Positions 23,976 to 63,690 of a stretch of 64,000 bases of DNA are shown piece by piece. The translations under genes were made by a program, and so were the position numbers. Position 1 is the first letter of the stretch, and each line of letters begins with the position of its first letter. The notes beneath the pieces are model-generated. The model was not told the DNA's origin, made no database searches, and saw only the letters and a list, made by a program, of their open reading frames with translations. The stretch spans positions 313,132 through 377,131 of the forward strand of contig CAWAWP010000001.1 of NCBI GenBank assembly GCA_963785845.1, given 5' to 3'. Source of the DNA: an uncultured Chloroflexia bacterium (GTDB lineage: Bacteria; Chloroflexota; Ktedonobacteria; Ktedonobacterales; JADMIN01).

Positions 23976-25481
23976 CTAGTGGCCGAGCGTGAAGAGGCTA
24001 TTGGCGCTGGTGGTGAGCGAGGTCAGAAGCACACCAAAGGCGACGGTGAGCGCGAGAATGCCGAAGACGGCGAGGCCCATCGTCGCATTGACGGCCCCGG
24101 ACACCGAGAGGCGGTCGCGCTTGACCGGCTCGATGACGTACATGCGCCAGAGGACGTTGACGTAGTACGCGATCGAGATCGCGCTGTTGATCAGGGCGAG
24201 GATCACCAGCCAGGTGAGCGCCGATCCTTCATTCCAGGCCGAGACGAGAATGAAGACCTTGCTGAGGAAGCCAGCCATCGGCGGAATGCCGGCGAGCGAG
24301 AGCAGGCAGAGCGCGAAGCCGAAGGCGATCCAGGGGCTGCGCCTGCCGAAGCCGTCGAAGTCGCGGATATTTTCTTTGCCCGTGGCATCCGCGAGGGCGA
24401 TGATGCCCGCGAAGGCGCCGATGTTAGTGACCACATAGACGGCGAGGAAGGCGAGCATGCCTAACTCGGCGCTCGGCGTGTTGTGGATCATCACCGCGGC
24501 GAGACCGACCAGCAGATAGCCCGCCTGGCCGATGCTGCTGTAGGCCATCATGCGCTTAATGTTGGTCTGCAGCAGCGCGACGATGTTACCGAGGGTCATC
24601 GTCAGCGCGGCCACGATCGCCACTAGCACCCAGAGATAGGCGCTACTCGCCGCGATAAGGCCACCGAAGACGAACACGCGCAGCAGCGCCGCGAACCCCG
24701 CGGCCTTGGAGCCAACAGAGAAGAACAGTGTGGAGGGCGCGGGCGAGCCTTCGTAGATGTCTGGCGCCCACATGTGGAAGGGCACCGCCGAGACCTTGAA
24801 GCCGAAGCCGGTGAAGATGAAGACATCCGCGGCGAGGAGCATCAGGTTGCCGCTTTGTAAACCGTTGGGACCGAAGACCCCCGCGATGGTGACCAGATCG
24901 GTGCTACCAGTCGCGCCGTAGAGCAGTGCCATGCCGTAGAGCAGGATCGCCGACGACATCGCGCCCAGCAGCACATACTTCACCGCGGACTCCGCGGAGC
25001 GCCCATCGGTGCGCGAAAGGCCCGCCAGGATGTAGAGCGGGATGCTGGTGAGCTCAAGAGAAATGTAGATCGTGATCAACTCGCCGGTGCTGGCCATCAG
25101 CATCATGCCCGCGACGGAGAGCAGGATCACGCCGTAGTATTCCCCGACCGTGACACGCAGATATTTCTCGACGTAGCCGTAGGAGACTAGCATCACGCCG
25201 AAGCCGATCAGCAGGAAGAGGAACTCGAAGAAGAAGGCGAAGTTGTCGACGACGAGCATGCCGAAGAAGGCAGTGCCATTGCTGGGCAGCGGCCCGAACC
25301 ATTGGCCGACGAGCGAGAGCGTGAGGACGGCGGGAACGATGAGCCCGACCAGCGCCACGATGGTGACGAGTCCGCGACGTTTCGTGATGAGATCCAATGC
25401 GAACACCAGAGAGCCAAGGATGACGACGCTCAACTCAGGTGAGAGCATCCAGATCTCTGTCGCGCCAATCTGTGAATTCAT
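23976..25481 (-). CDS. nuoN: NADH-quinone oxidoreductase subunit N
   Basis: Polytopic antiporter-like protein (FHMWAPDIYEGSP motif). Terminal gene of the J-K-L-M-N series. Confidence 0.9.
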   Translation of the reverse strand: MNSQIGATEIWMLSPELSVVILGSLVFALDLITKRRGLVTIVALVGLIVPAVLTLSLVGQWFGPLPSNGTAFFGMLVVDNFAFFFEFLFLLIGFGVMLVSYGYVEKYLRVTVGEYYGVILLSVAGMMLMASTGELITIYISLELTSIPLYILAGLSRTDGRSAESAVKYVLLGAMSSAILLYGMALLYGATGSTDLVTIAGVFGPNGLQSGNLMLLAADVFIFTGFGFKVSAVPFHMWAPDIYEGSPAPSTLFFSVGSKAAGFAALLRVFVFGGLIAASSAYLWVLVAIVAALTMTLGNIVALLQTNIKRMMAYSSIGQAGYLLVGLAAVMIHNTPSAELGMLAFLAVYVVTNIGAFAGIIALADATGKENIRDFDGFGRRSPWIAFGFALCLLSLAGIPPMAGFLSKVFILVSAWNEGSALTWLVILALINSAISIAYYVNVLWRMYVIEPVKRDRLSVSGAVNATMGLAVFGILALTVAFGVLLTSLTTSANSLFTLGH

Positions 25482-25569
25482 CGCTGCTCTCGCCTTCCTC
25501 CAGGTTTCGCGGCCGTCTCTATCGTTACTTTTTTGTGGGGTGTGCGGGTGCTAGATGGTGGGTGGGCGA

Positions 25570-27141
25570 TCAATGGGCAAGCGCCTGGACGGTGCCGAGC
25601 ATCTGGTGCAGGGATGGCTTGATCAGATCAGTGATCGGCCCGGGAAAGATGCCGACGAAGATCACGACCACGGCGAGGGAGATCAGCGGGAACGCCTCCA
25701 GCAGATCGGCGTCGCGCAGCCATGTCCACTTCAGATTCAATGGACCGTAGAACGCGCGACGCAACATCCAGAGGAGGTAGCCCGCCGTCAGCACGACGCC
25801 GAACGCCGCGAGGATCGTCACGACCGGCAAGATCGAGAAAGAGCCGGTGAAGACGAGAAACTCGGCGACGAAGCCGGAGAGCGCGGGCAGCCCCAGCGAG
25901 GCGAAACACGCCACCGAGAAGAGCAGCGTAAGCATCGGCATGCGCTGGGCAATGCCGCCGAAGACGCCTATCTCGCGCGTGTGCGCCTTCTCGTACAGCA
26001 CGCCCACGGCGAAGAAGAGCATCGCGGTAATGGTTCCATGAGTGAACATTTGCAGCGTCGCACCGGTGAGCGCCGCCTGGCGCAGATCGGCGGCATTCGC
26101 CCCAGCAGTGGTGGAGACCGCGGCGGCGGCGGCAACGCCTAGCAACACATAACCCATGTGGCTGACGCTGGAGTAGGCAATCATCTTCTTCATGTCGTGC
26201 TGGACCATCGAAGCGCCGGCGCCCCAGAGGACGTTGATCGCGGCGAAGATGCCCAGCGCTGGGGCGAAAGCTACCGCGCCATGTGGCACAAAGCCGAGGC
26301 AGATACGGATCAAGCCATACGCGCCCATCTTCAGGAGCACACCGGCCAGCAGCACGCTCACCGCGGTGGGCGCCTCGGTGTGGGCGTCTGGTAGCCAGGT
26401 ATGCACCGGCCACATAGGGATCTTGACGGCGAAGCCCGCGAAGAGCAGCAAGAAGACGATCAAAGGCAGCGAGACCAATCCACCAAAGAGCGGAAGGTTG
26501 CCAGTCACCGAGGAGCCAGCGGCGGCGAAGTGCTGAAAAGTCGCGCTGGTGGCGCCGGTCCGTATGTAGAGCAAGAAGATGCCCGCCAGCGTGAAGGACG
26601 AGCCGACCAGCGTGTAGATCAAGAACTTCCAGGCGGCATATTCGCGTCGCGACCCGCCCCAGATTCCGATCAGCAGGAACATGGGGATCAACTCCACCTC
26701 CCAGAAGAGGATGAAGAGGAAGAGGTCGAAGGAGGCGAAGACGCCCATCACTCCGGTCTCAAGGAAGAGCATCAACGCCATATAGAAGCGCTGGCGTTTC
26801 TCAAGTCGCCACGAACTGACGACGGCGAGGAAGGTGAGCAGGCCGTTGAGGATGATCAGTGGGATGCTGAGGCCGTCAGCGCCGAAGGCGAAGCGTACCT
26901 GGAAGTGGAAGCCGCCGATATTGGCATTGATCCACGGCTCGTTTACAGCCCATTGCGGATTCATGACATCGCCGAAGGGGCTGCCGTTGAAGATGATGCC
27001 AAAGTAGAGCCAGAGGCTCAACAGGAAGACGGCAAGGCTGAACACCGCGGCGCTCCACTTACCGAAGCGCTCCGGGACGAGTAACGTCACCACTCCACCG
27101 AGGAGGGGTCCGAAGACTATTGCTGGGAGCAGCCAGCTCAT
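25570..27141 (-). CDS. nuoM: NADH-quinone oxidoreductase subunit M
   Basis: Antiporter-like subunit with WLPDAHTEAPTAVSVLLAG and MIAYSSVSHMG. Confidence 0.9.
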   Translation of the reverse strand: MSWLLPAIVFGPLLGGVVTLLVPERFGKWSAAVFSLAVFLLSLWLYFGIIFNGSPFGDVMNPQWAVNEPWINANIGGFHFQVRFAFGADGLSIPLIILNGLLTFLAVVSSWRLEKRQRFYMALMLFLETGVMGVFASFDLFLFILFWEVELIPMFLLIGIWGGSRREYAAWKFLIYTLVGSSFTLAGIFLLYIRTGATSATFQHFAAAGSSVTGNLPLFGGLVSLPLIVFLLLFAGFAVKIPMWPVHTWLPDAHTEAPTAVSVLLAGVLLKMGAYGLIRICLGFVPHGAVAFAPALGIFAAINVLWGAGASMVQHDMKKMIAYSSVSHMGYVLLGVAAAAAVSTTAGANAADLRQAALTGATLQMFTHGTITAMLFFAVGVLYEKAHTREIGVFGGIAQRMPMLTLLFSVACFASLGLPALSGFVAEFLVFTGSFSILPVVTILAAFGVVLTAGYLLWMLRRAFYGPLNLKWTWLRDADLLEAFPLISLAVVVIFVGIFPGPITDLIKPSLHQMLGTVQALAH

Positions 27142-27165
27142 CGTGAAGCTCCTTTCCCCTCGCGG

Positions 27166-29331
27166 TTACTTGCCAATGACGCCGTTAGCGGCGAAATACA
27201 CCAGAATGAGAATGACCATCGCCCCACCGAAGAGCGCCGCGCCGTAGCTCTGCAACTCGCCGGACTCGGTACGCCGCGTGACGCTGCCGAGGCCGCGCAC
27301 CGCCCGTGCGGAGCCGTTGACGACCCCGTCGATGATGTGCTGGTCGAACCAGACGGCGAGATTCGAGAGGCCGAAGACGACGCCACGAATGATCAGTTGG
27401 TAGAGTTCGTCGATGTAGTAGTGGCGATAGAGCAACTGATGGATCGCGGCGCCGACAGGGTTGCGCGTCAGGGCGTTCGCCGGGACGACCGCGATGCCGT
27501 ACATCGTCCAGGCGACCAAGATGCCCACGATGCTCGCGCCAATGCCGACGAACGTGAAGTTATCGAGCCCCGGCGTGACCGTATAGTTGACGTTCTGACC
27601 GCCGTTGAGGAACCAGGCGAAGCCAACATTCAGGCCGGCGAAGCCCAGAAGCCCAATGACGACGGTGACACTGGCGAGCAGCACCAGCGGCAGCCACATC
27701 ACCCAGGGTCCGTCGTGATTGCCATGGAGCGGACCGTCGCCGCGATAGATGTTCGCGCTGCCCCAGAAGCCAGCGAAGGCCCCGCCCGCGCCGCCGAACG
27801 TGCGGAAGTAGAGGCGGAACATGTAGAAGGCTGTGAGGAAAGCGGTAAAGAGCGTCATACCGTAGATCAGGTAATCACCCTTGTCGAATGCGAGGGCGAT
27901 GATCGGGTCTTTGCTCCAAAAGCCGGAGAACGGCGGAATGCCCGAAATCGAGAGGCAGGCGATCAGGAAGCAGAACGCGGTGATTGGCATGAACTTCGCC
28001 AGACCGCCCATCTTGCGCATGTCTTGCACGGCGACGGCATGGATCACGCTGCCGGAGCCGAGGAAGAGCAGCGCCTTGAAGAAAGCGTGGGTGAAGAGGT
28101 GAAACATGCCAACGGCGTTGGTGTCCGCGACGGCGAGGCCGGTAAACATATAGCCGAGCTGGCTGATCGTCGAGTAGGCGAGTACGCCCTTGATGTCGTT
28201 CTGCGTGAGGGCGATGGTTGCCGCGAAAAGCGCCGTGAAGGCGCCAATGTAGCCGACGACCTGGAGTGCCTGGGGGCCGGCGGAGAGCGCATAGATCGGA
28301 AAGAGGCGCGCGACGAGGTAGACGCCCGCGGCCACCATCGTCGCCGCGTGGATCAGCGCGCTCACCGGCGTCGGGCCAGCCATGGCGTCCGGCAGCCAGA
28401 CGTGGAGCGGGAACTGCGCGGACTTGCCGATCGCGCCGCAGAACACCAGGATCATCGCAGCGGTGATCACGCCTTTGTCGGCGGTAAGCGTCGCACGATT
28501 GAGCGAGACGAAATCGAAGGTACTGGTGTTGACGAAGAGGATCAGGATGCCGATGAGGAAACCGAAGTCGCCGAGGCGCGTCGTGACGAATGCCTTGAGC
28601 TGCGCCGGTGGCGGATAGGGCACCTCGGAGCCGGGAGGCGGCGGCGCGTGATAGAACCAGAAGCCGATCAGCAGATAGGACGAGAGGCCCACCAACTCCC
28701 AGCCGATGAAGATCACAAGGAAGTTGGCGGCGAGCACGAGGATCAGCATCGACACGGTGAAGAGCGCCAGTTCGGTGAAGAAGCGCGGGAAGCTGACGTC
28801 GCCAGCCATGTAGCCGAGCGAGTAGAGGTGCACCAACATCGAGACGCCAGTGACGACGACGAGCATGATACAGGTGAGGGTGTCGACCCGGAAATCAATG
28901 TTGTAGTGCAGCGGCCCGAAGCTGAACCAGGAATAAAGATGCGTGGTGACGCCGTGAGCACGCAGCGCGGCATCATTGAGGTACTCGATGAGGATGGCGA
29001 CGGAGAGCGCGAAGGACGCGAGGACCAGCAGGACGCCGATCCACCCGCCAAGTTGCGAGAGGAGCGGTGTGCTGGCGCCATGACCGCCGTGGCCGCCGCC
29101 GTGATCGTCGTGAGCGCTGGCGGCTTGCGAGTCGTTGGCGTCGTTCTGCGCTTCGTGCCCGGCCTCGGTATCAGGCTCGCCGTGAGCGCCAACCGCGGCA
29201 TGGGGGTTGCCGCCGGCGGGCGCATTGGCGTTGCGCAGACGTATCGAGTTCGGGATCGTCAGCAGCAGGTTGATCACCATCGCCGCTAGTGGCAGCGCGA
29301 CCACGAGCCAGGCCCAGTCAACAGGTCTCAT
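27166..29331 (-). CDS. nuoL: NADH-quinone oxidoreductase subunit L, with a His/Asp-rich insertion after TM1
   Basis: Motifs WLPDAMAGPTPVSALIHAATMVAAG and AYSTISQLGYM, plus a long C-terminal amphipathic region. Start trimmed to ATG 29331 (MRPVDWAWLVV); the ORF track begins at 29364. Confidence 0.9.
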   Translation of the reverse strand: MRPVDWAWLVVALPLAAMVINLLLTIPNSIRLRNANAPAGGNPHAAVGAHGEPDTEAGHEAQNDANDSQAASAHDDHGGGHGGHGASTPLLSQLGGWIGVLLVLASFALSVAILIEYLNDAALRAHGVTTHLYSWFSFGPLHYNIDFRVDTLTCIMLVVVTGVSMLVHLYSLGYMAGDVSFPRFFTELALFTVSMLILVLAANFLVIFIGWELVGLSSYLLIGFWFYHAPPPPGSEVPYPPPAQLKAFVTTRLGDFGFLIGILILFVNTSTFDFVSLNRATLTADKGVITAAMILVFCGAIGKSAQFPLHVWLPDAMAGPTPVSALIHAATMVAAGVYLVARLFPIYALSAGPQALQVVGYIGAFTALFAATIALTQNDIKGVLAYSTISQLGYMFTGLAVADTNAVGMFHLFTHAFFKALLFLGSGSVIHAVAVQDMRKMGGLAKFMPITAFCFLIACLSISGIPPFSGFWSKDPIIALAFDKGDYLIYGMTLFTAFLTAFYMFRLYFRTFGGAGGAFAGFWGSANIYRGDGPLHGNHDGPWVMWLPLVLLASVTVVIGLLGFAGLNVGFAWFLNGGQNVNYTVTPGLDNFTFVGIGASIVGILVAWTMYGIAVVPANALTRNPVGAAIHQLLYRHYYIDELYQLIIRGVVFGLSNLAVWFDQHIIDGVVNGSARAVRGLGSVTRRTESGELQSYGAALFGGAMVILILVYFAANGVIGK

Positions 29332-29467
29332 CCGTTTCGCTCCGTTACCGACTTCTCCACACAAGCCCGTCCCACGACTACTGGAGCCTGCTCATGCTTG
29401 GCGGTGTCCGGCATGCCGCCCGACGCGCGGCTCACCGCGATTCCGCGGCGCATCTGAAACACGCTGG

Positions 29468-29794
29468 TTACCACCGCATCAGGTTGATCTCGCCGACATC
29501 GATGGTCTTGCGTCGCCGGTAGATGGCGATGATCATCGCCAGGGCAACCGCCGCCTCCGCCGCCGCGACCGTGATGATGAAGACGGCGAAGACCTGACCA
29601 GTCAAGCGATCGCCGTGATGTTGCGTATTTGACATGAACGAGGCAGCGTACGCCACGAGGGTGATGTTTACGGCGTTGAGCATGACCTCAATGTTCATGA
29701 GGATGGCGACGGCGTTGCGCTTGCTCAGCGCGCCGAAAAGGCCGATGCAGAAGAGCACGGCACCCAACACCAAGAAGTGATTCAGCGTGATCAA
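29468..29794 (-). CDS. nuoK: NADH-quinone oxidoreductase subunit K
   Basis: 108-aa protein with three TM helices and the C-terminal motif AAAEAAVALAMIIAIYRR. Confidence 0.9.
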   Translation of the reverse strand: MITLNHFLVLGAVLFCIGLFGALSKRNAVAILMNIEVMLNAVNITLVAYAASFMSNTQHHGDRLTGQVFAVFIITVAAAEAAVALAMIIAIYRRRKTIDVGEINLMRW

Positions 29795-29815
29795 CAGCGT
29801 GCCCTCCCTGGTTGC

Positions 29816-30349
29816 TCAGTCCTCGCGCCCGATCATGATGGCCCCGATGATCGCCACCAATAAGACTACTGAAGCGATTTCAAAAGGCAGCACGTAGCTG
29901 TAGGCGAACGGGCTATAGAGCAGTTGGCCGATTCTGACCACCGTGCCGCCCTGGCCCGACGAACCCGCCAACGGAATCGCCATACCCGCGGAGCCGACGA
30001 TCATCGGACTGTTGCCGACGGCGTAAATGATGCCGCCGCCGAGCAGTATGCATATCAGACCCGCCAGCCACCACTGCCCGCTAAATGGATTGCTTGTGCC
30101 GCTCATGCTGTGTTGCGTCAACATGATGGCGAAGAGGATCAGAACGGCGACCGCGCCCGCGTAGATCAAGATCTGCACGATGGCGATGAACTCGGCGTTC
30201 AATAGGACGTAAATGCCAGCCGCCGCGCCGAAAACGACGACGAGAAACAACGCGGCATGCACGATGTTCTTGAGAAAGACCACCGCGAGCGCGGAGCCGA
30301 CGAGCATCGCCGCCAGTATCCAGAACGCCACAGCGGGGATGTCGATCAT
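29816..30349 (-). CDS. nuoJ: NADH-quinone oxidoreductase subunit J
   Basis: 177-aa polytopic protein immediately upstream of nuoK. The N-terminus FWILAAMLVGSALAVVFLKNIVHAALFL is typical of NuoJ. Confidence 0.85.
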   Translation of the reverse strand: MIDIPAVAFWILAAMLVGSALAVVFLKNIVHAALFLVVVFGAAAGIYVLLNAEFIAIVQILIYAGAVAVLILFAIMLTQHSMSGTSNPFSGQWWLAGLICILLGGGIIYAVGNSPMIVGSAGMAIPLAGSSGQGGTVVRIGQLLYSPFAYSYVLPFEIASVVLLVAIIGAIMIGRED

Positions 30350-30668
30350 AGCGGCTCCTCCTCAAGCGCGCAGCAAGCAACGCGTGATGAATCGCTGGAG
30401 TGTACCGGTCGGAGCATGCGCGGCGCGAGCGGAAAGGAGATGAGTGAAGGCTGAATACATCAGGCTCCGCGCAGATTGCCATCTCTAATTGTATCATGCG
30501 GCGTCAATTGGCTGAGCATGCAATTTGCGGGACAAATGGCCGCCTCAACCGGCCTTTGGCAGCAGATGGCGACTGCGTGTTCTGCCTCGGCAGGAGGCGT
30601 TCGAAGGGCTCCTGAGTGCAGTTGATCGGCCAGCCAACGGACGTCAGAGAGGGCGATCTGCACGCGCC

Positions 30669-32339
30669 TTATCCATGCAGCGCACCGGGCGCGGCTCCGG
30701 TCGTGGGCGTGGCGACGCTGTGGCGACCACGCAAGCCCGCAAGGTTGAACCCTGGTCCCTCGATCAGCAGGCCCGCCGCCACCGCCGAGACCACCGCCAG
30801 CGCCGCCGAGATCAGCATCGCCACGCGGAATCCTGCGACGAACGACTGATCGATGGCGCCCTTGACGGCGGCATGCGTCGATGCGCTCAGCCCCGCGGGG
30901 ATGTTGACGCCCGCCAGTCGGGTGCGCTGTGCGTTGAGCGCCTCCTGAACCCCTGTGGGCAGGTGCAGCGCGGCGATGTTGCCGTCGTAGTGCGTGCTGA
31001 ACACCAACACCACGACGATGTTCAACGCGGCGATAGCGATCAGTCCGGCGGTGCGCGAGACGGAGTTATTGATCCCTGAGGCCGTCCCGGAGTGCGACGA
31101 GGCCACCGCGCCCATCACCGTCGTGGTCAGCGGCGCGATCACCAGTGCCATGCCCAGGCTGAGCACGACGACGGCGGGAAAGTAGGTCGTCCAGTAGCTG
31201 CCGCCGACATCGGGGAGCGCAAACAGCACGAAGCCGACGGCGACAATCAGTGGCCCGATAATCAATGGACGCTTGGCGCCGAAACGCGGCACCAGCCCAC
31301 CAGCCCAGCGCGAGAGCGCGAAGACGATGATGGTAAACGGCAAGAACGCCGCGCCCGCCTCTGCCGGCGAATAGCCCTGCACCTGTTGCAAGTTGAATGG
31401 CAGGAAGTAGAGCGCGCCGCCGAGTGCGCCGTAGAGCAAAAGCGTCAACAGGTTCGCTCCGCTGAACGTCTTGGAGGCGAAGAGTTTGAGCGGCATCATC
31501 GGCTCAACGGCAGTCTGCTCGACGCGCACGAAACCCGCCAGCGCGGCAACGCCGACGATCAGCGGCACGACGACTTCCGCCGCGCCGAAACCTACCGCGC
31601 TTGCCTGAATCAGCCCGAAGACCAGCGCGCCGAGTCCGACCGTGGCCAGCACCGCGCCGAGCCAGTCGAGCGGGCCGGTGGCCTCGGGGTCGCGCGTCTC
31701 GACGACGTAACGGAACGTGACGGCAAGCGTGATCGCGGCCAGCGGCACGTTGATGAAAAAGACCCAGCGCCATGACGTGTTCTGCACCAGCCAGCCGCCG
31801 AGCACCGGACCAATCGCGGAGGTGATCGTCGTGAACGCCGACCAGGTGCCGATCGCGCGCCCCCGGCGCTGGGAATCAAACGAGGCGCTGATGATCGCCA
31901 GGCTCCCCGGCACGAGCAGCGCCCCGCCAATGCCCTGAACGCCCCGGGCGATGATCAGCACGAGGATGTTGGGGGCAAGCCCACAGACCACTGAGGCCGC
32001 GGTGAAGAGGATGATACCCGCGGAGAAGATGCGGCGGCGCCCCAGGCGGTCGCCCAGCGACCCGCCGACGAGAATCAGGGCAGCGAGAAAGATCGCGTAC
32101 GACTGGACGACCCACTGTACGTCCGCTGCCGACGCGCCAAGCTCGCGTTGGATTGTCGGCAGCGCCACGTTGACGACGGTGCCGTCGATAAACGACATGC
32201 TAGAGCCAAGAATGGTGGCGACGACCACCCAGGGCCCAGCATCGCGCACGGCGGAGGGCACACCACTCCCAGAGCTTCTCCCCGCAGGCGAACGCGGATT
32301 TGTTGGGCCTGTCGCCATCGTCGATGCTCCGTTCCCCAT
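30669..32339 (-). CDS. MFS transporter, DHA2/EmrB-like (14-TM type)
   Basis: N-terminal motif MSFIDGTVVNVALPTIQRELG and GDRLGRRRIF. About 14 hydrophobic segments. The exact start is uncertain. Confidence 0.85.
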   Translation of the reverse strand: MGNGASTMATGPTNPRSPAGRSSGSGVPSAVRDAGPWVVVATILGSSMSFIDGTVVNVALPTIQRELGASAADVQWVVQSYAIFLAALILVGGSLGDRLGRRRIFSAGIILFTAASVVCGLAPNILVLIIARGVQGIGGALLVPGSLAIISASFDSQRRGRAIGTWSAFTTITSAIGPVLGGWLVQNTSWRWVFFINVPLAAITLAVTFRYVVETRDPEATGPLDWLGAVLATVGLGALVFGLIQASAVGFGAAEVVVPLIVGVAALAGFVRVEQTAVEPMMPLKLFASKTFSGANLLTLLLYGALGGALYFLPFNLQQVQGYSPAEAGAAFLPFTIIVFALSRWAGGLVPRFGAKRPLIIGPLIVAVGFVLFALPDVGGSYWTTYFPAVVVLSLGMALVIAPLTTTVMGAVASSHSGTASGINNSVSRTAGLIAIAALNIVVVLVFSTHYDGNIAALHLPTGVQEALNAQRTRLAGVNIPAGLSASTHAAVKGAIDQSFVAGFRVAMLISAALAVVSAVAAGLLIEGPGFNLAGLRGRHSVATPTTGAAPGALHG

Positions 32340-60669: not shown

Positions 60670-60745
60670 TGGTAGCGGGGGGCGGACTCGAACCGCCGAC
60701 ACAGGGCTTATGAGTCCCTTGCTCTGCCGACTGAGCTACCCCGCC
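60670..60745 (-). tRNA. tRNA-Met (anticodon CAT; elongator Met or Ile2-type)
   Basis: Minus strand: GGCGGGGTAGCTCAGTCGGCAGAGCAAGGGACTCATAAGCCCTGTGTCGGCGGTTCGAGTCCGCCCCCCGCTACCA. It folds as a 76-nt cloverleaf with encoded CCA. There is one A31/G39 mismatch in the anticodon stem. Confidence 0.85.
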
Positions 60746-60840
60746 AGGGGCGAACAATCGGCTACCGCACCCCACCTGGAGCACGATAGCCGGGAATTGG
60801 TAGCGGGGGGCGGATTCGAACCGCCGACCTCCGGGTTATG

Positions 60841-61489
60841 CTTGCTACTACAGCTTTCGCTGCCCGGCGAACCGGTTTGTAGTCTGGACTTTCCCTTCAC
60901 CCTCGGCGTTACCCGTTAGGGTGCCTCACATCAAGTCTCTACACGTTCCTCAGAGGATTCATCATCCTCAAAGGCTTCGCTCGGGATTACCCTGCCAACG
61001 GCTTCCCCGAATTTGTGAGGTGTTCCTACAGGCGTTTCCCCTGTAGAGCCCATTGTGGAATGAAGTGCCAAGCGTCACGATAGTCGGCAGATTTGGGTTT
61101 TCGCTGACGCTTGTCGGCTTCGACCATGTGAATTTCACTGCCGTAGCCGATGAAAACGTCGCATGGGAAGACATAGAACACATCGACATCGTCGATGTAG
61201 ACGAGAGCAAAATCAAAATCTTCGGCTGAGTACACGCCGCGAATCATCATGCGACGATTCGTTTTCGTCCGACGGTTGTCCACGACATAATTGCCTGACG
61301 GACCATCGAACCAGGCGGATTTCACCTGAATCTTGACGAAAGCACTACCGACTGCAAAGACGAGATCGTATGGCAATCTGTCTCCAACTGGTCGGAGCAC
61401 TCCCCAACCGCGCTTCATCGCCTGAAGCACGGCTGCCTGCTCTGCGATGTCCCCCTTCAGCTTCGTATCCACTTTACTCCACGGAATCG
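60841..61489 (-). mobile_element. Group-I-like intron (between U33 and C34 of tRNA-fMet) carrying a homing-endonuclease ORF
   Basis: The 5' exon ends in U and the intron ends in G. The 3' 185 nt contain CAGACUAC...GUAGU (P7-like pairing), a CCGG-UUCG-CCGG hairpin, a CAGC-GAAA-GCUG hairpin, and GUAGAGACU..GGCACCC. From memory, these strings resemble tRNA-type (IC3) group I introns. Confidence 0.7.
61026..61472 (-). CDS. Intron-encoded PD-(D/E)XK-type homing endonuclease candidate (I-Ssp6803I-like), 148 aa
   Basis: KGDIAEQAAVLQAMKRGWGVLRPVGDRLPYDLVFAVGSAFVKIQVKSA shows a D...QxK restriction-fold core. The ORF lies wholly inside the intron if started at GTG 61472. The track ORF runs on through the tRNA exon to 61664, which cannot be real. 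Confidence 0.7.
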   Translation of the reverse strand: MDTKLKGDIAEQAAVLQAMKRGWGVLRPVGDRLPYDLVFAVGSAFVKIQVKSAWFDGPSGNYVVDNRRTKTNRRMMIRGVYSAEDFDFALVYIDDVDVFYVFPCDVFIGYGSEIHMVEADKRQRKPKSADYRDAWHFIPQWALQGKRL

Positions 61490-61533
61490 AGCCCGACGAG
61501 CTAACCACTGCTCTACCCCGCGTCGCAGAGGGG

Positions 61534-61562
61534 ATTGTACCATCGCCGCGCGGTGATGTCAA
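61534..61562 (-). promoter_or_regulatory. Consensus sigma70 promoter TTGACA-17-TACAAT driving the tRNA-fMet/tRNA-Met pair
   Basis: On the minus strand, TTGACA is at 61562..61557, the spacer is 17 nt, and TACAAT is at 61539..61534. The tRNA 5' end (61522) lies 12 nt downstream of the -10. Confidence 0.7.
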
Positions 61563-61742: not shown

Positions 61743-62210
61743 GTGGCGACGCTCCATTTGATGGTTGGACTTCCTTGCTCGGGAAAAACCACGCTGGCGC
61801 GGCAACTTGAGCGTGAGCAATCGGCCCTGCGCCTGACAGCCGATGAGTGGCACATACGTCTTTTCGGCCAAGATGCTGAGGAGCCAGAACATGATGCGCG
61901 CCATGGGCTCATTGAAGCCATGCTTTGGGACATCGCACGCCGAGCGCTCGAATTGGGCACGAATGTGATCCTCGACTTCGGCTTCTGGGCGCAGGAGGAA
62001 CGCGAAGACTATCGGTCTCGGGCAAAGCAGCTTGGGGCCAGCAGCGAAATACACTTTCTCGATGTAGCGGCGGATGAGTTGCTGCACCGGCTTGCGGCAA
62101 GAAATGCGCAGCCGGCGCCAACACGTTTCTACATTCCCGAAGCGATGATGAAGCCGTGGATCGCCTTCTTCCAACGCCCAACGCCCGACGAACTTGAGCG
62201 CCGCGAGTAG
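61743..62210 (+). CDS. P-loop kinase-like ATP-binding protein (AAA_33/zeta-toxin-like fold)
   Basis: Walker A MVGLPCSGKTTLA and VILDFGFW (Walker B-like). GTG start at 61743 after AGGAG. 155 aa. Confidence 0.7.
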   Translation: MATLHLMVGLPCSGKTTLARQLEREQSALRLTADEWHIRLFGQDAEEPEHDARHGLIEAMLWDIARRALELGTNVILDFGFWAQEEREDYRSRAKQLGASSEIHFLDVAADELLHRLAARNAQPAPTRFYIPEAMMKPWIAFFQRPTPDELERRE

Positions 62211-62529
62211 AGGCGAGCAGTCGCGCCACCGGGAGAGAACTCCCCGCCCATGCGCCCCATCCACTGGCCCCGCTTCACCCAGCCTCCTTCACCCAGCCCG
62301 CTTCACCCGCTCTCAACGGAAGCAGCAACCGCCGCCGTGCGCGTACCCAAAGCCACATAACCCTTGCGTCCACCATCGCTCAATGCTATACTGCCACCAG
62401 AACATATGTTCAATATGCCGCCGCCCCCCCACACCCCACGCGCCTCCTCCACCCCCCCATCGCCGCACCCGTCCCGCCTCCTTCCCCCGCAGATCCAGCC
62501 CCGAGAAGGACCCGCCAAAGGAGCCATCC

Positions 62530-63690
62530 ATGCCTGCCCGCCACAATCCCCTGGCCGCCTCCACCGACGATCCCGTCGCCGTCGACGAGCCCCAACTCAC
62601 CCTGCGCGATCGCGCCTTCGCGCTGCACTGCCGCGGCCTCCGCTCCGGTGAGATCGCGCAGCGCCTCAACGTCCCGGCCCGCACCATTCGCTCCTGGGTC
62701 GCCGCCCAGCTCACCGCCACCGACGCCGAACGCGCCACCTCCAGGCGTCACCTTCGCGCCCTCGCCGTCGAGCGCCTCCTCTCCGTCGCCGCCGCTTCCT
62801 GGGATGCCTTCGACGTCGTCACCGCCGCCGAGCAAATGCCCTCCACGCTCGACGACTCCACAGCCGACCAACCTGGCGAAGTGGTTCCCGCCGTCGCTGC
62901 CAGCCCCATCTGGGCCGCGGGACTCTCCCCAGCGCGCTTCCTCGCCATCGCCCTCACCGCCTACCGCGAAGTCGCCCGTCTCCAGGGCCTCAGCGTTCAC
63001 CAGATCGCCAATACTGCGGCTGGCCACCCGAACGCCGCCAGGCCATCTCGCGCCAACCCCAACGGCGCCAGGCTCAACGGCGGCAAGCTCGACGGCGACC
63101 TCTCCCACCTCATCCTCATCCCCCCGCCGCAGCCGCCCGCCTTCGTCACCCCCGAACAGCGCTCCGCCTGGCAGACGTTTATCACCCAGTGGGAGCGCGA
63201 CCTCCGGCCCCCAGGAGCGCCCGCGCAGTACCCCGCGTACGAAACCCTGCTTCCCGCCGAAGAAGGCATCCGCCTCCACCTCGAAGCCCAGTCCGCCGCC
63301 CAGTCCGCCGCCCAGTCCGCCGCCGAAGCAACCGCCGAGAGTGCGTCACCCGCGACCTCCGAAGCAACTTCCGACTCCGAGATCACACGTGCCGCCGCGC
63401 CGCTCAGTGCCCCACTTCTGCCCAGTGGTGCCCCCCCAAACGCGGCAAAATTGGCAATACCACGCGTCGCCAGCGCCCAGCATTCCGACGCCGCAGTTGC
63501 CCCCACGCAAAACCCCGCGAATCCGCATCAGCCCGACGCCTCTCCCAGCGCCTCCCATCCACCCGCGCCTCTCCCCGGCGGCGGGGTGTACCCTGTGCCC
63601 CGCCCCATCCGTTGGGAATGGGATCCGGTCCTCGGCGCACCCGTCAAGCGCCGCGATCCCGTCGCCGGTCGTCGCCCTGGCGACACCTGA
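62530..63690 (+). CDS. Pro/Ala-rich protein with an N-terminal helix-turn-helix
   Basis: ATG at 62530 after AAGGAG. HTH-like LHCRGLRSGEIAQRLNVPARTIRSWVAAQL. Low-complexity repeats AQSAAQSAAQSAAEATAESA. The ORF-track 5' extension from 62194 is unlikely to be translated. Confidence 0.55.
   Translation: MPARHNPLAASTDDPVAVDEPQLTLRDRAFALHCRGLRSGEIAQRLNVPARTIRSWVAAQLTATDAERATSRRHLRALAVERLLSVAAASWDAFDVVTAAEQMPSTLDDSTADQPGEVVPAVAASPIWAAGLSPARFLAIALTAYREVARLQGLSVHQIANTAAGHPNAARPSRANPNGARLNGGKLDGDLSHLILIPPPQPPAFVTPEQRSAWQTFITQWERDLRPPGAPAQYPAYETLLPAEEGIRLHLEAQSAAQSAAQSAAEATAESASPATSEATSDSEITRAAAPLSAPLLPSGAPPNAAKLAIPRVASAQHSDAAVAPTQNPANPHQPDASPSASHPPAPLPGGGVYPVPRPIRWEWDPVLGAPVKRRDPVAGRRPGDT

Follow-up and report, generated by a model that had tools for sequence, protein, structure and literature searches.

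Evidence for a group I intron with an I-Ssp6803I-family endonuclease gene in tRNA-fMet of a Ktedonobacterales-like bacterium

The initiator transfer RNA (tRNA) gene, tRNA-fMet, in a 64,000-nucleotide (nt) stretch of contig CAWAWP010000001.1 from an uncultured Chloroflexota bacterium (hereafter the window) is split by a 649-nt insert. The insert is very probably an intact and probably still mobile group I intron of the tRNA type, placed between U33 and C34 of a Ktedonobacterales-like tRNA-fMet and carrying a homing endonuclease gene of the I-Ssp6803I family in the terminal loop of its P1 helix. It is a known kind of element in a host lineage that lacks a description in searchable papers, and a literature search of incomplete coverage turned up no report of it from Ktedonobacteria or Chloroflexota. 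The interpretation is drawn from the tRNA gene itself, from the structure and covariation of the predicted ribozyme, from the conservation of the endonuclease and its predicted target, and from comparison with homologous loci in other genomes.

An interrupted initiator tRNA gene

In its intron mode (-i), ARAGORN called the unspliced locus as tRNA-Met(cat) i(34,649), with exons at 61522..61490 and 60840..60798 on the minus strand that join into a 76-nt tRNA-Met(CAU). An original prediction, made from this stretch alone, had proposed the same two halves, with the same coordinates and with the 649-nt insert between U33 and C34. Neither default ARAGORN nor the Rfam tRNA model called the intron-split tRNA-fMet in the window, and the only other CAU tRNA returned was that at 60745..60670. 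The joined sequence and the ARAGORN cloverleaf contain C1·U72, A11:U24 in the D-stem and the stack G29G30G31:C39C40C41. The lack of a Watson-Crick 1:72 pair, A11:U24 and three G:C pairs at 29-31:39-41 are the classical marks of bacterial initiator tRNA, and with its CAU anticodon the joined molecule is accordingly classed as a predicted initiator; the 1:72 mismatch and the G:C stack had been recognised earlier, to which A11:U24 can now be added. As there is a C on both sides of the exon/intron boundary, its position is ambiguous by 1 nt when read from the sequence alone, and it was set at 33/34 by the U·G rule and the terminal-G rule.

The same arrangement was found to recur widely. In a scan of one genome per species, 288 genomes contained a relative of the endonuclease open reading frame (ORF), and 80 loci were fetched, with the exon boundaries in homologous loci anchored by ARAGORN. 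A tRNA-fMet split at the same nucleotide (...GGGCU/intron...G/CAUAACC...) was recovered in 76 of these 80 loci, so that the earlier observation of an exon ending in U and an insert ending in G extends to every one of the 76. Because the same split layout is present in independent assemblies, an assembly artefact, which had been raised as a concern, is ruled out.

A sigma-70-like promoter lies upstream of the gene, with 11 of 12 matches, and is the sole such site in 1.5 kb, against 0.3 expected by chance. TTGACA-17-TATACT-like sites occur at the same distance in nine Chloroflexota relatives (loci L001-L005, L020, L044, L054 and L058), in which the flanks have diverged. The TTGACA-17-TACAAT promoter of the original prediction is therefore present and conserved in position, with one amendment to its spacing, as the -10 hexamer ends 11 nt rather than 12 nt before the tRNA 5' end.

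Structure and conservation of the predicted ribozyme

The Rfam group I intron covariance model RF00028 matched positions 61072..60866 on the minus strand with 54.3 bits (E 5e-11), above its gathering score of 50 bits, over model positions 1-253, which is the whole model; the match covers the 3' third of the insert and bears out the group I assignment made earlier. The P1 helix and its internal guide sequence, which had previously not been located, were found just after the body of the ORF, such that the ORF sits in the P1 loop. As for the earlier supposition that the core must partly overlap or flank the ORF, the ORF spans intron positions 18-464 and shares its last ~12 codons with the guide sequence, P2 and the P1 3' strand.

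Within P1, U33 of the exon lies opposite intron G440, giving a U·G pair at the 5' splice site. Exon positions -3 to -1 and intron position +1 pair as G-C, C-G, U·G and C-G in 75 of the 76 loci, the remaining one having U·G at +1. In the extension of the helix, intron U4 and U5 pair with 436-437 and G8-G13 with 430-435, and its sequence covaries between loci: GUGGAG/UUCCAC in the window, GCAGGAUUA/UAAUCUUGC in locus L009 and ACCAAA/UUUGGU in locus L014. Extension helices built from a locus's own strands had a mean length of 8.3 base pairs (bp), compared to 5.8 bp with the partners taken from other loci. The trinucleotide A437-U438-G439 is complementary to CAU of the 3' exon and has the potential to form P10; this pairing is invariant, and hence carries no covariation information.

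Covariation across the remainder of the structure was assessed from 46 aligned ribozyme regions, covering P2-P9 including the P3/P7 pseudoknot (55 pairs, 2,476 cells). Standard pairs made up 95.3% of the 2,476 cells, versus 33-44% (maximum 43.6%) when the partners were slid by 1-3 columns, compensatory changes on both sides were present in 32 of the 55 pairs, and none of 500 shuffles reached the observed pairing values. P4 and P7 were nearly invariant and always pairable, and as such uninformative for covariation; near-invariance of these two helices is expected in the catalytic centre. RNAfold recovered the P2-P6, P8 and P9 hairpins on its own (z = -3.5). On the strength of this pairing, the compensatory changes, the shuffles and the RNAfold recovery, the predicted fold is judged to be kept by selection, with chance resemblance excluded.

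The guanosine-binding pair of P7 is likely G553-C603. Two alternative pairings were tried and dropped. The 5-bp P5 helix of the Rfam alignment did not persist, as just 3 of its pairs hold. The CAGACUAC/GUAGU pairing of the original prediction needed a change of register: ACUAC with GUAGU at 639-643 was abandoned for 608-611/642-645 (C608-G645, U609-A644, A610-U643, C611-G642), which the comparison favours since G639 is needed in the covarying GAAA-capped hairpin P9b and C-G to U-A changes support the later register. The UUCG- and GAAA-capped hairpins that had been noted after the ORF correspond to P9a and P9b. Taken together, the RF00028 match, the U·G pair of P1, the terminal G (omega-G) with P10 potential and the covariation of P3-P9 would place the insert among the group I introns, and its core alignment, along with the labelling of homologous tRNA-fMet 33/34 introns as IC3 (Nakagawa 2026, Table S5), suggests membership of class IC3.

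The endonuclease and its predicted target site

The 148-amino-acid (aa) ORF within the intron matched Pfam PF11645 with 171.2 bits (E 1.5e-50; curated cut-off 26.1 bits) over profile positions 2-138 of 138, and PDB 2OST, the structure of I-Ssp6803I, with E 4e-62 over residues 2-141, with 140 of the 148 residues aligned; NCBIfam has no model for the endonuclease. The 2OST chain has Q11 and K55 where the window protein has E and F. As these differences equal the published E11Q/F55K construct of I-Ssp6803I used for crystallisation and isothermal titration calorimetry, in which E11Q is catalytically inactive (PMC2175346), the residue numbering carries over directly. Residues E11, D36, Q49 and K51 are all present in the window protein and are invariant among diverse endonuclease homologues in the alignment. 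D36, Q49 and K51, whose roles are reportedly those described by Zhao et al. in 2007, would together with E11 make up the catalytic residues, in a D...QxK variant of the motif. The profile and structure matches and the invariant residues are in agreement with the D...QxK core of I-Ssp6803I type that had been proposed, and identify the ORF as a predicted PD-(D/E)XK homing endonuclease of the I-Ssp6803I family.

Against ten relatives, the ratio of nonsynonymous to synonymous substitution (dN/dS) was 0.05-0.10, a value that is approximate as synonymous sites are near saturation (dS > 1). These ratios show purifying selection on the gene, the protein being kept functional. A GGAG in the P1 extension, 4 nt ahead of the GTG start, is the likely ribosome-binding site. 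At the other end of the gene, the window ORF stops at a UAG in the P2 3' strand; in the closest relatives (L001-L005) the ORF runs on to 171-180 aa through P3-P6 (tail ...RETSVRTPHKFGEAVGRVIPSEA...), a tail whose sequence is conserved only because the ribozyme core is read in frame.

The joined exons, GTCGGGCTCATAACCCGGAGG, are identical at 19 of 21 positions to TTCGGGCTCATAACCCGAAGG, the cognate target used for I-Ssp6803I (PMC2175346), with the insertion point in the middle of the site. The endonuclease is consequently encoded inside an intron whose insertion point is within the predicted recognition sequence, and an intron-less duplex predicted to be cut by the 148-aa enzyme would carry GCTCGTCGGGCTCATAACCCGGAGGTCGG.

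Table 1. Coordinates of the intron, the exons it separates, the endonuclease gene and adjacent features in the window.
Feature	Position	Strand	Details
tRNA-fMet 5' exon, positions 1-33	61490..61522	-	C1, D-arm A11:U24, anticodon-stem 5' strand UCGGG, C32, U33 (ARAGORN -i, joined drawing)
tRNA-fMet 3' exon, positions 34-76	60798..60840	-	anticodon CAU, CCCGG stem strand, T-arm, acceptor 3' strand, A73, encoded CCA
Predicted group I intron, 649 nt, between U33 and C34	60841..61489	-	ARAGORN i(34,649), RF00028, identical site in 76 loci
P1 5' strand	61477..61494	-	exon GGGCU and intron C1 G2; extension U4 U5, G8-G13 (GUGGAG)
P1 3' strand	61046..61060	-	extension UUCCAC-AA (intron 430-437) and internal guide sequence UGGGCUC (438-444)
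Predicted homing endonuclease gene, 148 aa, GTG start, I-Ssp6803I family	61026..61472	-	intron 18-464, 447 nt, P1 terminal loop
P2 hairpin	61026..61046	-	intron 444-464, GGAAACG loop; 7/7 pairs with changes on both sides; recovered by RNAfold
Catalytic core and 3' domain, P3-P9b	60845..61021	-	RF00028, alignment, covariation, RNAfold
P3, P4, P5, P6/P6a/P6b	P3 470-476/560-566; P4 480-485/504-509 (intron numbering)	-	
P7	551, 553-556/600-604 (intron numbering)	-	pseudoknot with P3
P8, P9, P9a, P9b	P8 568-577/584-591; P9 608-611/642-645 (intron numbering)	-	P9a UUCG loop; P9b GAAA loop
Terminal intron G (omega-G), 3' splice site	60841..60841	-	G649; G in 76/76 loci
Sigma-70-like promoter	61534..61562	-	TTGACA 61562-61557, 17-nt spacer, TG-extended TACAAT 61539-61534
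Uninterrupted elongator-type tRNA(CAU), not part of the element	60670..60745	-	62.1 bits; 52 nt downstream of tRNA-fMet

Comparison with known introns

The tRNA-fMet intron of Synechocystis sp. PCC 6803 and its endonuclease I-Ssp6803I were reportedly described by Biniszkiewicz et al. in 1994 and by Bonocora & Shub in 2001, and the structure 2OST is said to be that of Zhao et al. from 2007. The window intron shares with this system the initiator tRNA, the 33/34 insertion and closely similar dimensions (649 versus 655 nt for the intron and 148 versus 150 aa for the protein), along with homology over 140 endonuclease residues, the residues E11, D36, Q49 and K51 and a target with 19 of 21 identical positions; the dimensions of the prototype are those of the published 655-nt intron and 150-aa I-Ssp6803I (PMC1995217). 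It differs in its host, which is a Ktedonobacterales-like member of the Chloroflexota with ~65% G+C rather than a cyanobacterium, in the C1·U72 of its tRNA, and in the status of the endonuclease activity, which is known for I-Ssp6803I and predicted here.

ORF-less tRNA-fMet 33/34 group I introns of class IC3 were reportedly also treated by Paquin et al. in 1997. Those of cyanobacteria and Bacteroidota (Nakagawa et al. 2026, Table S5) share with the window intron the insertion site, the guide AUGGGC and the P2-P9 core; the alignment matches each column of the two, and they covary. They are shorter, at 240-305 nt, because a short hairpin takes the place of the 447-nt ORF that fills the P1 loop of the window intron, and the homologous endonuclease gene stands free just past the tRNA in 45 loci of cyanobacteria. 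More distantly, the introns of Anabaena tRNA-Leu(UAA) 34/35, Azoarcus tRNA-Ile(CAU) and Agrobacterium tRNA-Arg are also compact IC3-type ribozymes in the anticodon loop and have the core motifs AAUUCGGGGAA, GUAGAGACU and AGUCCAG in common with it (Table S5 sequences), but they occupy other tRNAs at other positions and as a rule lack an endonuclease gene.

Host lineage and distribution of the element

The host appears to lie within or close to the Ktedonobacterales. The window has a G+C content of ~65%, the best named matches of its GTP-dependent phosphoenolpyruvate carboxykinase (74-78% identity) are from Ktedonobacterales, bar one stray archaeal label, and the nearest copies of the endonuclease and intron (78-84%) are in Ktedonobacterales metagenome-assembled genomes (MAGs) and in one MAG labelled Proteobacteria, with the same locus layout. 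These matches bear out the earlier impression that the gene neighbourhood is not cyanobacterial. In a crude neighbour-joining tree, the window copy fell in one cluster with the Ktedonobacterales copies, and the Nitrospirota and Anaerolineae copies fell in several separate clades, a pattern that speaks for descent inside the order together with transfers across phyla.

The taxonomic labels of two loci were at odds with their content. L001 (JAJPIU010000124.1), from a MAG labelled 'Proteobacteria bacterium', has a Ktedonobacterales-type locus, comprising promoter, tRNA pair and endonuclease at 84%, and L062 (CAZZZY010000019.1), from a MAG labelled 'Acetobacteraceae', has a Nostoc-type locus; both are possibly mis-binned.

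At least 288 species genomes, drawn from many phyla, carry the element, and 2,071 homologues of the endonuclease were found in the protein database. Some of these, in Ktedonobacterales, Chloroflexota, Anaerolineae and Chroococcidiopsis, already bear the NCBI name 'group I intron-associated PD-(D/E)XK endonuclease', and those of Nitrospirota and Poribacteria are labelled just 'endonuclease'. The spread beyond cyanobacteria that had been suggested, whether by lineage expansion or by horizontal transfer, is therefore real, but it is not new, given that it was already visible in public data through these homologues and names.

Two layouts of the element were observed. The endonuclease gene lies inside the intron in 28 loci, 27 of which are not labelled cyanobacterial. 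In 47 loci, 45 of them cyanobacterial and mostly Nostocales-type, an ORF-less 33/34 intron of 240-297 nt is accompanied by a free-standing endonuclease gene, which usually starts 50-138 nt past the tRNA and after a terminator-like hairpin. An example among loci L006-L080 is L014, with the tRNA at 1090-1410 and the endonuclease gene from 1501. The free-standing layout resembles the 'collaborative homing' arrangements of phages, and no paper was found describing it for tRNA-fMet. A survey of 4,934 complete genomes identified 33/34 as the usual site of tRNA-fMet introns and reported a PF11645 endonuclease in only two of these introns, both of them from cyanobacteria, together with ORF-less IC3 copies in Bacteroidota (Nakagawa et al. 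2026).

It is possible, if still rather doubtful, that the window copy samples a largely undescribed population of endonuclease-bearing tRNA-fMet introns spanning Chloroflexota, Nitrospirota, Acidobacteriota, Armatimonadota, Bacteroidota, Omnitrophota and other phyla and long under purifying selection, with cyanobacteria, in which the element was first discovered, mostly having a free-standing endonuclease beside an ORF-less intron. This wider pattern is of more interest than the single locus, above all the near-complete separation between loci with the endonuclease gene inside the intron and loci in which it is free-standing.

Proposed mechanism and alternative explanations

Under the favoured interpretation, the tRNA-fMet gene would be transcribed from the conserved promoter and the intron would fold such that its guide UGGGCUC forms P1 with exon GGGCU and intron CG, with U33·G440 placed where cleavage would occur. 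P7 would bind an external guanosine, which would attack after U33. AUG at 437-439 would align CAU of the 3' exon through P10, and the freed 3'-OH of U33 would then attack directly after the terminal G649 and ligate the two exons to give a 76-nt tRNA-fMet. The endonuclease would be translated from the precursor or from the excised intron, with folding of the ribozyme probably limiting translation, as the ribosome-binding GGAG lies in the P1 extension stem. The enzyme would then cut tRNA-fMet genes that lack the intron, at the sequence of their anticodon stem-loop (here GTCGGGCTCATAACCCGGAGG), and repair off the intron-bearing copy would insert the intron (homing); the resident gene would itself be immune, as the intron splits its target site. 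The host may depend on splicing by the ribozyme for its viability.

A number of points weigh against this interpretation. The RF00028 score is just 4 bits over the threshold, a low margin that is to be expected because the ORF splits P1 and the model skips P1, and there are local deviations from the usual structure in the form of G2·U438 where A-U is usual and a G·G juxtaposition within P5. The ORF ends 23-32 codons before those of the closest relatives, near the 150-aa length of I-Ssp6803I, and the synonymous saturation described above limits the precision of dN/dS. Two positions of the target depart from the Synechocystis site, with G at the first position and CCCGGA for CCCGAA (which gives a U27·G43 anticodon-stem pair), and the specificity of the endonuclease may be shifted relative to the Synechocystis enzyme. 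Further, the inventory of initiator genes is that of this window, which bears both on whether splicing is essential and on the supply of homing sites, and splicing, cleavage, homing and translational control are all predictions from sequence.

The most plausible competing explanation, though an unlikely one, is that the intron is resident and no longer mobile, with a ribozyme that splices and an endonuclease that does not support homing, either because all alleles are occupied or because activity has been lost, leaving the element fixed, vertically inherited and heading to loss of the ORF. Such a history would be consistent with the clustering of the window copy with other Ktedonobacterales copies in the crude tree, as expected from vertical descent within the order, with the old divergence implied by synonymous saturation between those copies, and with the ORF-less versions in many cyanobacteria, which indicate that loss or absence of the ORF is common. 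It is harder to reconcile with a dN/dS of this magnitude and the full set of intact catalytic residues, indicative of a protein still selected for function, with an ORF that is full-length relative to I-Ssp6803I, or with the several separate clades of Nitrospirota and Anaerolineae copies, which suggest continuing transfer.

Persistence of the endonuclease could also reflect domestication, in which the endonuclease or intron benefits the host, either by assisting in splicing (as a maturase) or through a regulatory role that ties initiator tRNA supply to growth state or the level of GTP. Long purifying selection on the gene in many phyla does exceed the prediction of simple invasion and decay, the overlap of the ORF with the guide and P2 and the placement of the ribosome-binding site in P1 physically couple translation and folding, and the cyanobacterial gene persists beside the tRNA even when outside the intron. 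Nevertheless, this is considered improbable: ORF-less homologous introns have complete cores, meaning that the ribozyme does not need the protein, the patchy distribution across phyla fits repeated homing or transfer, and I-Ssp6803I is not known to have maturase activity. That the locus is non-functional, being either a tRNA pseudogene broken by the insertion or an assembly chimera, is effectively refuted. The failure of default tRNA finders to call the split gene and the derivation of the data from a single window are all that speak for it, and are outweighed by a canonical cloverleaf from the joined halves with all initiator marks and an encoded CCA, by the same split at the same nucleotide in 76 independent loci, and by the covarying intron structure and conserved promoter.

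The neighbouring tRNA(CAU) gene and other features of the window

The uninterrupted tRNA(CAU) gene downstream of tRNA-fMet is possibly co-transcribed with it, and the same tandem is found in Chloroflexota relatives. It was considered as a second, intron-less initiator, which was ruled out by its C11:G24, by a G:C triplet at 28-30:40-42 and by an anticodon stem-loop with no match to the target within 3 mismatches; it may be a tRNA-Met or a lysidine-modified tRNA-Ile2. In a comparison of the window with L001-L004, L044, L054 and L058, its anticodon stem was closed by a non-Watson-Crick 31:39 pair: Caldilineaceae and Anaerolinea have C31·U39 there, and the window shares A31·G39 with the Ktedonobacterales relatives. 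Over the 28 nt that precede CCA, made up of the T-arm and the acceptor 3' strand, the initiator and downstream CAU tRNAs of the window are identical at 27 of 28 positions (60670-60700 versus 60798-60828, minus strand), compared to 2-21 of 28 in the relatives, which suggests either recent gene conversion of the tandem tRNA genes or chance.

Elsewhere in the window, a 498-aa Pro/Ala-rich ORF without a Pfam match (62194-63690, plus strand) adjoins the tRNA promoter region on its upstream side. GC skew is strongly negative (-0.26) in the final 2 kb of the window, and AT skew is strongly positive (0.16-0.24) across positions 24000-32000, coinciding with minus-strand genes for membrane subunits of the NADH:quinone oxidoreductase/Mrp-antiporter type and a major facilitator superfamily transporter.

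Implications for the intron family

At the level of the single genome, standard annotation overlooks this initiator tRNA gene, and a tRNA census would wrongly report no tRNA-fMet at the locus. At the level of the family, the pairing of I-Ssp6803I with a tRNA-fMet intron is not "generally cyanobacterial", as reviews state, but is spread over many phyla that are known chiefly from MAGs and that surveys of complete genomes under-sample. The family provides naturally occurring versions of an endonuclease whose structure has been solved, differing slightly in their target sites, and its two arrangements, with the endonuclease gene within the intron or free-standing, make a ready comparative set in which to study the association between endonuclease genes and introns. 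If the cross-phylum pattern holds true, the two layouts would represent natural before and after states of the capture of an endonuclease gene by a group I intron, or of its escape from one.

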